Virus record (IMG/VR): IMGVR_UViG_3300027706_000269
Location: 27,817 to 91,816 of that record
From: a virus
DNA: 64,000 nt
Strand: one strand, 5' to 3'
The first letter of the stretch is position 1. Each line of letters begins with the position of its first letter. Positions 48,261-58,466 of the stretch are shown piece by piece. The position numbers and the translations under genes were made by a program. Under the pieces are notes generated by a model. The model made no database searches. It was given only the letters and a program-made list of their open reading frames with translations, and was not told the origin of the DNA.

Positions 48261-48292
48261 GACGACCCGCCATTCGGCGGGTTCGTCGTTTC
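48261..48292 (+). terminator. Hairpin before the capsid gene
   Basis: GACGACCCGCC-ATTC-GGCGGGTTCGTC then GTTT. Confidence 0.5.
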
Positions 48293-48304
48293 TGGAGTCT
48301 CCCG

Positions 48305-49603: not shown

Positions 49604-50025
49604 ACTCGGTGCGCGAGCGCCTGCTGCGCACCCTCGTCGATCGGCTCACGGCGGCCCTGGCCCCGGCGCCCGTGCTGCGCCAGCCGGCGACACCGCTGCC
49701 CCGCGAGGCCGGCCCTGCGTTGCTCGTCTTCGTCGAGGGTGACGCCCTCATCGCACATGCCAACCGGCTGACGGACCGGGCGCTCACCGTGCGCCTGGTC
49801 GCGCTCGCGCGCGGCATGGACGCCTTCGACGCGGCCGACCGGCTGATCGTCGCCGCTCACGCCGCCGTGCTCGCGGACCCGAACCTGGGCGGCCTGGCGC
49901 TCGCGGTGCGCGAGCTCGACGCCGACTGGGACGCCGACGACCTCGATGCCGGCACGGTGACGCTGCCGGCGCGCTACGAGATCCGCTACCGCACCGCCCT
50001 GACCGACCTCACGACCCCGGGATGA
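49600..50025 (+). CDS. Tail terminator-like protein
   Basis: ATGA-coupled; LGGLAL..YEIRYRT; before the tail tube. Confidence 0.7.
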   Translation: MNSVRERLLRTLVDRLTAALAPAPVLRQPATPLPREAGPALLVFVEGDALIAHANRLTDRALTVRLVALARGMDAFDAADRLIVAAHAAVLADPNLGGLALAVRELDADWDADDLDAGTVTLPARYEIRYRTALTDLTTPG

Positions 50026-50234
50026 CCCCCATGCACATCGAACTGCTCCAACCCCACACCCACGCCGGTCGGCGCCTGCCCGCGGGCGCGCGGCTGGACC
50101 TGCCCGAGGCCAGCGCCCGCTGGCTGATCGCCCAGGGCGTGGCTCGGATCGTCACGCCGGATTCCTTGATCCCACCCCCCAAACCCTCGCGCCGTGACGG
50201 TCCCGCTGTCCCGGCAAGCTCCACGGGAGACTGA
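50022..50234 (+). CDS. Small phage protein
   Basis: LLQPHTHAG..ARWLIAQGVA. Confidence 0.65.
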   Translation: MTPMHIELLQPHTHAGRRLPAGARLDLPEASARWLIAQGVARIVTPDSLIPPPKPSRRDGPAVPASSTGD

Positions 50235-50236
50235 CC

Positions 50237-50362
50237 ATGGCCTACTTCTGGCTTCGGCCGCTTCGCTTAACGCCCGCTACGCGGGCATTAGCCTTCGCCG
50301 CAACGCGCCGACACGGCGCGTTGTCCGGACACATTGCCGATCGCTGAGGAGGGACGGCAATG
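50237..50362 (+). other. Duplicated tail-tube gene start with a 75-bp in-frame multi-hairpin insertion (36-aa leader ORF 50237-50347)
   Basis: ATGGCCTACTTC[75 bp]TCCGGACA versus ATGGCCTATTTCTCTGGACA at 50360; four hairpins. Confidence 0.75.
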
Positions 50363-51112
50363 GCCTATTTCTCTGGACAAGGGCGCGTCTACATCGGCGC
50401 GCGCGACTCGGCAGGCAACCCCGCCGGCCTCACCTTCGTCGGCAACGTGCCGGAACTGAAGGTGTCGCTGTCGGTGGAGACGCTGGAACACCAGGAGGCG
50501 CAGTCCGGCCAGCGCCTGACCGACCTGCAGCTCATCAAGACCAAGAAGGGCGAGTTCGCCTGCACGCTGGAGGAACTCAGCGCCGGCAACCTCGCGCTCG
50601 CCCTCTACGGCCACTCGACCACGGTGGCGCCAGGCACGGTCACGGGCGAGGCGCTGCCCAACCCGGTCACCGCGGGCCACCTCTATCCGCTCGCGCACCA
50701 GAACGTCTCGGCGGTGCAGATCCAGGACGGGAGCAGCCCGCCCAAGACCCTGCCGGCGACGCAGGTCCAGGTGCACGCCCGGCACGGCTCGGTGCTGATC
50801 CTCGACGCCACGACCGGCGGCCCCTATGTCGAGCCCTTCACCGTGGATTACGCCTTTGGTGCCGCGCAGAGCACGGCGATGTTCACCCGGCCGCTGCCCG
50901 AGCGCTGGATCCGTTTCGAGGGCCTCAACACCGCCGACGCCAACCGCGAGGTGGTGATCGACCTCTATCGCGTGGCGATCAACCCGGCCAAGGAGCTTTC
51001 GATCATCACCGACGAACTGCTGAAGTTCGAACTCTCCGGCCAGGTGCTGGCGGACCTCTCCAAGCCCGCCGACGGCGAACTCGGCCAGTTCGGCCGCCTG
51101 GTGCTCTTGTAA
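50360..51112 (+). CDS. Major tail tube protein
   Basis: MAYFSGQGRVYIG; paralog of 1-674. Confidence 0.88.
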   Translation: MAYFSGQGRVYIGARDSAGNPAGLTFVGNVPELKVSLSVETLEHQEAQSGQRLTDLQLIKTKKGEFACTLEELSAGNLALALYGHSTTVAPGTVTGEALPNPVTAGHLYPLAHQNVSAVQIQDGSSPPKTLPATQVQVHARHGSVLILDATTGGPYVEPFTVDYAFGAAQSTAMFTRPLPERWIRFEGLNTADANREVVIDLYRVAINPAKELSIITDELLKFELSGQVLADLSKPADGELGQFGRLVLL

Positions 51113-57680: not shown

Positions 57681-58466
57681 ATGAGCGAGAGCCCCCTGTT
57701 CGAGGTCGAGCTCTACGCCTTCGAGGGCACGAGCGGCAGCTTCCGGCTCACCCCGCACGAGTTCGACGTGGAGATCGGCGGCCAGCGCTACGAGCGCTGC
57801 CCCCTCGAGCGCAGCGCGCTCGCGCTCGGGGCCGAGGCGGCCAAGTCGGCGCTGGAGTTGAAGCTGCCACCCGACCACGCGCTCGTGCGGCATCTGCTGC
57901 AGGCGACCCTCACCGGCGAGGCGACCGCGGTGCGGCTACGGATCGCCCGACGTGACGCCTGGGGCGATGCCTGGTGGCTTTCCGGCACGCGCTGGATGGG
58001 CCGCGTGCTCGGGGTGGAGGTGGCCGATGACTCTGCGCGCATCCGCTGCGAGTCCGCCCAGGTGAGCTTGAAGCGCATTGGTCTCAGGCGGCTCTACAGC
58101 CGCGCCTGCTCGCACGTGCTGTATTCGGCCGCGTGCGGGGCGACGCCGATCTCGGCCACCGCCGAAGTGATCCGCTCCGAAGGCCGCCAGGTGGAACTGG
58201 CGAGCCTCCCGCCCGAGGTGGCCGGCATGCTCGCCGGCGGCTGGTTGCAGACGCCGGCAGGCGCGCGCCACATGATCGTCAGCGAATCATATGCGGGCGT
58301 GGAACTGCTCTATCCGGTGGGGCTTGCGCCGCAGACGCCGGTCGAGCTCGTGGCCGGCTGCGATCACAGCATGCCCACCTGCGCCGCGCGCTTCGACAAC
58401 CTCGCCAACTACGGCGGCTTCCCCTTCATTCCGACGAAGAACCCGTTCTCGACGGGCGTCTTCTGA
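57681..58466 (+). CDS. BR0599-family baseplate hub protein
   Basis: AGCDHSMPTCAARFDNLANYGGFPFIP. Confidence 0.9.
   Translation: MSESPLFEVELYAFEGTSGSFRLTPHEFDVEIGGQRYERCPLERSALALGAEAAKSALELKLPPDHALVRHLLQATLTGEATAVRLRIARRDAWGDAWWLSGTRWMGRVLGVEVADDSARIRCESAQVSLKRIGLRRLYSRACSHVLYSAACGATPISATAEVIRSEGRQVELASLPPEVAGMLAGGWLQTPAGARHMIVSESYAGVELLYPVGLAPQTPVELVAGCDHSMPTCAARFDNLANYGGFPFIPTKNPFSTGVF

Follow-up and report, generated by a model that had tools for sequence, protein, structure and literature searches.

Why does the major tail protein gene of a lambda-like prophage begin twice? The DNA analysed here, hereafter the window, is a 64,000-nucleotide part of an IMG/VR provirus record. The second start, ATG GCC TAT TTC TCT GGA CAA at 50360, opens a reading frame of 250 amino acids, the product of which matches phrog_807, 'major tail protein with Ig-like domain'. 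Upstream are head genes of the lambda type (decoration D, capsid E, head-tail attachment protein and DUF7210); downstream, a tail assembly chaperone gene comes next. The first ATG, at 50237, follows the TGA stop of the DUF7210 gene by only 2 nt. From here, ATG GCC TAC TTC (50237-50248) is read, followed by 75 nt with three hairpins. The resulting leader ORF consists of the first four codons of the ancestral gene and the repeat that is read through behind them; its TGA stop overlaps the GAGGAGG of the new Shine-Dalgarno (SD) region. A 13-nt segment of the original gene start, Xp, returns as Xr at the second start, with 12 of 13 positions identical (Table 1). The 123 extra bases are, with high probability, the footprint of a single insertion of a non-coding structured mobile repeat, dispersed in Burkholderiales, around which the start of the gene was rebuilt.

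A preliminary description of positions 50237-50362 had reported the leader, the 75-bp interruption with its three hairpins, the second start with its GAGGAGG ribosome-binding site and the enclosing inverted repeat. Direct reading of the sequence finds each of these coordinates to be exact.

Table 1. Features of the tail-gene start region and of two related polymorphic sites, in window coordinates.
Feature	Position	Strand	Basis
DUF7210 upstream gene, 70 aa	50022..50234	+	ORF list; Pfam PF23843, E=3e-15
Ancestral Shine-Dalgarno GGGAGA, now serving the leader ORF	50225..50230	+	same SD-ATG context in ~73 empty-site relatives
Xp, displaced original gene start ATGGCCTACTTCT, left copy of 13-nt direct repeat	50237..50249	+	direct repeat
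Leader ORF, 36 codons	50237..50347	+	ORF list; frame open in 18/18 distinct filled alleles
Structured-repeat core (P1 arms, shortened P2, P3)	50250..50300	+	model R1 match
GGC-TTCG-GCC hairpin	50250-50259	+	
Shortened P2, GC-TTC-GC	50260-50266	+	
P3 hairpin	50267-50291	+	
Second hairpin, arms 90% complementary	50268-50277/50281-50290	+	inverted-repeat search
Third hairpin, extra, 10 bp, loop ACA, 100% complementary	50301..50323	+	arms 50301-50310/50314-50323
Inverted copy of start region, 5' arm of predicted masking hairpin	50321..50339	+	inverted repeats; folds
Hairpin loop with leader stop TGA (50345-50347) and new SD GAGGAGG (50346-50352)	50340..50354	+	sequence
3' arm of predicted masking hairpin: new ATG (50360), Xr (50360-50372, right copy of direct repeat), codons 5-7	50355..50380	+	inverted repeats; folds
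Major tail protein gene, 250 aa	50360..51112	+	phrog_807, E=1.2e-81
D-E spacer, second polymorphic site	48266-48304, empty		66-nt copy in relatives
Third polymorphic site, 3' end of distal tail gene ending ...NYGGFPFIPTKNPFSTGVF and stop	~58406-58460, empty	+	

The tail protein has 305 relatives in IMG/VR. In about 73 of the best 80 of these 305 loci, the gene starts only once, in the context GGGAGACTGACC-ATG GCC TAC TTC TCC GGA CAA. The SD and the spacing of these empty relatives are the same as those ahead of the first ATG of the window; hence, the upstream start is the ancestral one, and the downstream start with its SD arrived with the insert. The codon usage of Xp is also identical to that of the empty-site relatives. 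For annotation purposes, the true start of the tail gene is 50360, and the upstream ATG should not be called the gene start.

The same 123-bp insert is found at the same place in 20 records, representing 18 distinct alleles: the window, seven IMG/VR loci, four metagenome contigs and eight species-representative genomes (Thiofaba, Caldimonas manganoxidans, Thermomonas, Tepidicella xavieri, Ralstonia mannitolilytica and three MAGs). Since 20 records share these 123 bp while about 73 of the 80 closest relatives are empty, the double start is more than a chance event. Filled prophages occur in at least six host genera. Neither a donor form nor an intermediate of the tail-site insert was encountered in IMG/VR, the GTDB genomes or the metagenome contigs, and the 28-nt filler that bears the SD has no other match within the window.

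The core of the insert belongs to a family of repeats. A scan of metagenomes with a 19-mer from the insert recovered five related copies in long bacterial contigs of one sample, and BLAST with those copies led to a further related element of 66 nt, which some relatives of the phage carry in the D-E spacer. The preliminary description had suspected a palindromic mobile element and had proposed a covariance model as a check. Such a model, R1, with a 71-position consensus, was built from 25 copies located elsewhere, excluding the tail-site copy. It matches the window at 50243-50307 with 55.5 bits (E=1.3e-13), and the next best match in the 64 kb scores 17.7 bits. Together with the further sites in the phage family and the tens of copies present in some genomes, this match supports the 75-mer as a palindromic mobile element.

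The repeat has a three-way structure: P1, which pairs the ends and has a three-pair inner closing stem, and the hairpins P2 and P3. P2 is an invariant GCCGC/GCGGC hairpin, and P3 is a TTAAC...GTTAG hairpin, in which six of nine pairs show compensatory changes. Across the 25 copies, 86% of the cells are paired, compared to 31-45% with the partners slid. The covariation amounts to 0.239 vs. at most 0.093, and the observed value is reached by none of 500 shuffles. In the tail copy, P2 reads CGGCC-GC-TTC-GC, a symmetric shortening by 3+3 nt of CGGCC + GCCGC-nnn-GCGGC. This short form recurs in several copies of genome G062, which suggests a subfamily trait rather than decay. The TTAAC/GTTAG (or ATTAG) base of P3, its variable, compensating apex and the GCCTKCGCCG that follows are all present at 50267-50300; the C.A mismatch in the fourth pair is common to 10 of the 25 family members. 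The extra perfect hairpin is likewise a trait of one subfamily, with homologs at the same position in the copies of metagenome Ga0180732 and in L142 and L148; core and hairpin together make up the 75-mer that had been described as the interruption.

The strict two-hairpin motif was detected in 35 of 401 sampled Burkholderiales genomes (GTDB order), with controls near zero, and in 20 IMG/VR records. It often occurs in multiple copies per genome, sometimes in tandem arrays with a period of 89-153. Five genomes contain at least 63, 52, 32, 26 and 14 copies according to model R1; these numbers are lower bounds, because 150 candidates were scored per genome. The family is also modular, since the core forms part, in some genomes, of longer composite repeats (~230-250 nt) with both flanks in common (L169, L171, L193 and L200-L202 in G062; L105-L114 in Ga0180732). 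Two tandem repeat units lie by an intact tRNA gene in L142:1376-1800, each with a copy of the tRNA 5' half and its leader. No Rfam match was obtained at E<=10 for window positions 49900-50700, nor for other copies of the repeat, and no paper describing the family was found with MITE terms or motif strings. The R1 repeat family of Burkholderiales is apparently undescribed. One contig with a repeat copy also carries an Rfam anti-hemB sRNA (Burkholderia RNA 7; L112:2908-2997, 61 bits), which is unrelated.

As to the search for other copies that the preliminary description had suggested, a second 75-mer is absent from the provirus record, and related copies are present in Burkholderiales genomes and in phage relatives. 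A BLAST of the 111-nt insert against five host genomes of filled prophages returned the tail copy only, plus one true relative in Tepidicella. With model R1, Thiofaba and Ralstonia likewise yield the tail copy alone, and Tepidicella and Caldimonas a few more. Phage mosaic joints cluster at gene borders, and, given the single 75-mer of the provirus, a neutral recombination scar at such a joint, formed with no mobile element involved, might be considered. This explanation is hardly credible, as it is contradicted by the model match, the census of the family and the two other polymorphic sites in the same phages.

The resemblance to GTAG-family REPs that had been pointed out on the minus strand did not hold. 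The GTAG corresponds to the loop of P3, which differs between family members and shows an A/G polymorphism in the filled phages. Moreover, no link with a RAYT was found.

The copies of the family share a characteristic footprint. On its left, the core is nearly always joined directly to a T-run of the target: the junction is ACTTCT/GGCTTCGG at the tail site and TTTT/GGCT, TTGT/GGCT or TTT/GGCT elsewhere. Of 27 chromosomal copies sampled in one genome, 11 are flanked by direct repeats, of ~20-80 nt, above the 99th percentile of mismatched controls. Across the family, the target duplications range from 3 to ~80 nt and often comprise the end of a gene, such as the first 15 codons of a dehydrogenase gene with a new SD or the last 13-25 codons of other genes. 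Furthermore, the core is frequently followed, immediately on its 3' side, by an inverted copy of the target flank. Column 3, in the flank, and column 71 covary, and several copies form perfect rc(x)-loop-x-TTTT hairpins. The tail site bears the same marks, a 13-nt direct repeat and an inverted copy (50321-50339) that pairs with 50355-50380. In this case, the inverted copy is separated from the core by the subfamily hairpin, its usual position being directly after the core.

One further copy seems to be an in-frame insertion in a coding region (L196, G062:C1:2117650-2118550). The heptapeptide NIYRHRE is present on both of its sides, by eye with synonymous differences, and the inverted copy is perfect with respect to one side.

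Two other sites in the phage family are polymorphic for the repeat. At the D-E site, the 66-nt copy immediately follows the T-run of the decoration-gene terminator and closely precedes the major capsid gene. This site is filled in L006:856-915, L008:956-1015, L019, L024, L029 and L207-L220, with two tandem copies in L218. Matched pairs (L014 vs. L008/L019 and L021 vs. L029) reveal a clean insertion, with TTT alone duplicated. All four combinations of tail-site and D-E-site states occur. The third site is filled in the viral contigs L209, L212, L213, L215, L217, L221, L222 and L224, as well as in the Tepidicella prophage L158 and the G062 prophage L188. Here, 43 nt of the window (58406-58448) match both flanks, extending by eye to ~65 nt including the stop. 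The gene-end copy adjoining the downstream gene retains the ancestral C-terminus, and the two copies are, by eye, ~25% diverged. Within one phage family, the duplication thus measures 3, 13 and ~43-65 nt at the three sites.

The simple insertion at the D-E site, made by a member of the same family, is in line with a tail site formed by two unrelated events: a local 48-bp duplication with filler, which would have created the second start and SD, and a separate, simple 75-bp insertion at ACTTC^TCC, free of target duplication, into the first copy, by then dispensable. Directly after the 75-mer, TCCGGACA is exactly the next 8 nt of the interrupted gene. However, the 3' part of the insert is always accompanied by the 75-mer in IMG/VR, the 75-mer alone in an otherwise intact gene was never found, and no intermediate was encountered. 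Long flanking duplications and inverted target copies, moreover, recur at many unrelated sites of the family, which ties them to the element. Two events are, for these reasons, unlikely, even if the tail site by itself does not separate them from one: because TCCGGA is palindromic, TCCGGACA can be read as a direct continuation or as an inverted copy.

In the preferred reading of one insertion, the repeat would have landed after the T-rich end of codon 4 (ACTTCT) in the tail gene. The order of the product would be Xp, core, inverted target copy, filler, Xr and the rest of the gene, as at many sites of the family; at the tail site, the subfamily hairpin would come between core and inverted copy, with the loop carrying the leader stop and the new SD behind them. 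The second copy of the target would rebuild the first four codons and the filler would supply a strong SD, so the full-length tail protein (MAYFSGQ...) would still be made. The tail gene, thus, probably survives because its start has been duplicated behind a new ribosome-binding site, and the old SD and ATG would now serve to start the leader through the repeat.

Afterwards, the insert would have spread among related phages by recombination. Tail genes with 95-97% nucleotide identity exist in phages without the insert. The filled state requires at least three changes on the tail-gene tree, which indicates that the insert has moved between phage backgrounds by recombination. Over the 18 filled alleles, three sites vary in the 75-mer and six in the following 36 nt. 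All filled alleles other than that of the window share a synonymous C-to-T change at gene positions 6 and 12, and have T (or A)/G/A at positions 15/21/24.

A group of prophages (L089-L096) have tail genes close to that of the window (Caldimonas at 0.035; Thiofaba in the same clade, by tree path). The large contigs that contain them come from hosts of different orders (Thiofaba, Thermomonas, Ralstonia, Caldimonas, Tepidicella and Rhodocyclales), which suggests a host range that is unusually broad or has expanded recently.

Between most filled alleles and the nearest empty ones, five synonymous differences lie in the first 24 nt, the next 75 nt being identical. Such a pattern could point to an imported allele, for which the repeat would first have been located in the spacer ahead of the tail gene of another phage lineage; one homologous crossover within the gene and one illegitimate joint would then have brought repeat, SD and gene start next to the resident start. 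In line with this, the divergence of the two gene-end copies at the distal site is close to that between a filled phage and the window (74-82% identity). This scenario is, nevertheless, quite improbable. None of the 20 records, from three collections, has the repeat without the pseudo-start, and the same architecture is present at single-copy chromosomal genes. In addition, TTGTCCGGA, in the 5' arm, is the exact complement of the resident, ancestral TCCGGACAA and not of the allele now in the gene.

The inverted copy may also have consequences for translation. Its CATTGCCG (50332-50339) and the CGGCAATG around the new start (50355-50362) are 100% complementary, and a two-tier hairpin of 63 nt with -19 to -28 kcal/mol is predicted around this start in all seven filled alleles that were folded. 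In these predicted folds, the new AUG has a probability of only 0.00-0.11 of being unpaired, and the SD, in the loop, is ~0.6 unpaired. For the three empty relatives that were folded, the corresponding probability of the AUG is 0.40-0.67. With the allele now in the gene, the modelled hairpin is ~2 kcal/mol weaker than with the ancestral start allele. The inner stem is imperfect (C.A or G.U) in several alleles, without compensation.

The leader ORF crosses the whole 5' arm of this hairpin and ends in the loop, 12 nt before the AUG. If the inverted copy masks the new AUG, the hairpin would, therefore, be melted by a ribosome that arrives from the upstream gene and translates the leader, and this ribosome could reinitiate at the new start. 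Reinitiation would keep tail-protein synthesis coupled to the upstream gene, as it was ancestrally. Translational coupling via the leader is plausible on the basis of these models. Three of the four changes in the last codons of the leader are synonymous, with a chance probability of ~0.11; the filled alleles are very similar and few substitutions are available.

It had been proposed that the element is frame-preserving and/or acts as a leader-peptide switch for tail tube supply. The first property appears incidental, as the leader ends before the real start and two of the three frames of the core are open anyway. As to the second, the 171-nt region folds at -73.3 kcal/mol, 3.1 standard deviations better than shuffled sequences (z=-3.1), and the insert is nearly invariant in the 18 alleles. 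Both features, as well as the predicted masking of an AUG that the leader would unmask, would suit an attenuator or translational switch evolved for this gene, with a secondary likeness to the repeats. Yet, model R1 scores the core as a member of a repeat that is present at dozens of unrelated loci, and the low variation also fits a recent origin; an Rfam match is lacking. The nearly identical phages without the insert weaken the proposal further. A leader dedicated to regulation is, hence, very improbable, and the same phages argue for the accommodation of a selfish insertion rather than an evolved switch.

Several candidates for the mobilising enzyme were examined in the five genomes with high copy numbers. 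Y1_Tnp genes are present in four of the five, with no R1 copy within 1.5 kb; they are flanked by other inverted repeats, and a RAYT was rejected. Box-like motifs and a literature match raised the possibility of integron attC sites, which was rejected as well, the cassette arrays carrying other attCs: no R1 match lies beside intI in any of the five genomes, and the arrays of G062 and G089 were read. The five richest genomes (G062, G394, G089, G061 and G201) all encode a bona fide IntI, the integron integrase, at 475-485 bits for a cut-off of 265, and this association with the repeat may reflect shared ancestry, not function. The reverse transcriptase domain RVT_1 was detected in only one of the five genomes, some of the assemblies being incomplete, and a retroelement moving by target-primed reverse transcription was set aside on this count. 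A MITE derived from a DDE insertion sequence was rejected, as the duplications of 3, 13 and ~43-65 nt have no fixed length and no parent IS lies between paired copies. The 1.3-kb intervals between such copies hold toxin-antitoxin or housekeeping genes (rnf/nth), and no autonomous parent.

The footprint, with its T-run junction, duplications of 3 to ~65 nt and inverted target copy, fits no transposition chemistry that was found described. Polymerase-based, target-primed copying, with a snap-back via the terminal stem of the repeat, is a hypothesis for its movement that would explain why the junction lies at a T-run, why the target is copied in inverted form and why the duplication varies. More speculatively, and with little confidence, a class of mobile DNA without an element-encoded transposase can be envisaged: a nascent end at a T-run would switch template onto the folded repeat, snap back via the terminal stem while copying the target in reverse, and rejoin upstream. 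Such a class would produce target duplications of any length together with an inverted copy of the target. If this is true, a repeat that rebuilds gene ends upon insertion could spread into the first and last codons of essential genes and of phage structural genes, leaving bridging mini-ORFs behind.

Small palindromic repeats are usually seen as intergenic passengers. Here, such a repeat interrupts, four codons in, what is taken to be the tail gene with the highest expression in a temperate phage, and this gene has been rebuilt around the repeat. Within the family, phages with and without the insertion can be matched at three sites, some of these phages being only a few percent diverged, which gives an unusually clean view of the insertion footprint. 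It also provides a natural case of a DNA insertion that creates a leader ORF and a predicted masked start codon. This case is directly testable, since the filled prophage is available in the cultured strains Caldimonas manganoxidans ATCC BAA-369, Ralstonia mannitolilytica LMG 6866 and Tepidicella xavieri DSM 19605.

Compared with known systems, the R1 repeat resembles REPs, BIMEs and REPINs in being short, G+C-rich, hairpin-forming and non-coding, with tens of copies that lie mostly by gene ends and sometimes in tandem. Unlike REPs and REPINs, it lacks the conserved GTAG/GTGG head and the inverted doublets, and it has a three-way fold of 57-75 nt. In contrast to the REPIN/RAYT pair, no R1 copy is found near the Y1_Tnp genes of four high-copy genomes. 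For REPs, no duplication of tens of target bases is known. Rickettsia palindromic elements (RPE) and intragenic REPs provide examples of a palindromic repeat inside a coding gene that is read through by the ribosome. The R1 repeat is comparably open to being read as a leader at the tail site, and L196 is an apparent in-frame insertion. It has, however, no sequence relation to RPEs, and the tail gene is probably rescued by duplication of its end, whereas the host of an RPE tolerates an internal peptide.

With MITEs (Correia/NEMIS, ERIC and RUP), the repeat shares ends that pair as terminal inverted repeats, the absence of a gene, the duplication of the target and the possibility of being co-transcribed with neighbouring genes. 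It differs from them by the variable length of the duplication, by the inverted target copy that often follows the core and by the lack of an identified parent IS. That 15-28 bp can be duplicated in bacterial transposition is shown by the IS1202 family, the duplications of which have fixed lengths of 27-28, 15-17 or 5-6 bp (bioRxiv 10.1101/2022.12.17.520857). The R1 duplications, on the contrary, vary from 3 to ~80 nt. The base of P3, GCTTAAC ... GTTAGCC, is near the RYYYAAC/GTTRRRY of attC sites, and GCCGC-TTC-GCGGC ... GGCTTAAC is present in the aadA1 attC (supplementary sequence of bioRxiv 10.1101/620195; PMC2117344). Unlike attC sites, R1 copies are dispersed, do not lie at cassette ends and are not inserted at G^TT.

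The tail site finally recalls the unmasking of start codons in RNA phage MS2 and in many operons: a hairpin sequesters the start codon, the other arm of this hairpin belongs to an upstream ORF, and that ORF terminates a few bases ahead of the start. Unlike coupling of the MS2 type, the arrangement at the tail site, predicted from sequence, would be a by-product of a DNA insertion. Among described kinds of elements, the REP/BIME/REPIN group, the MITEs and the IS1202 family are the nearest to the R1 repeat, and each of them differs from it in a defining feature.
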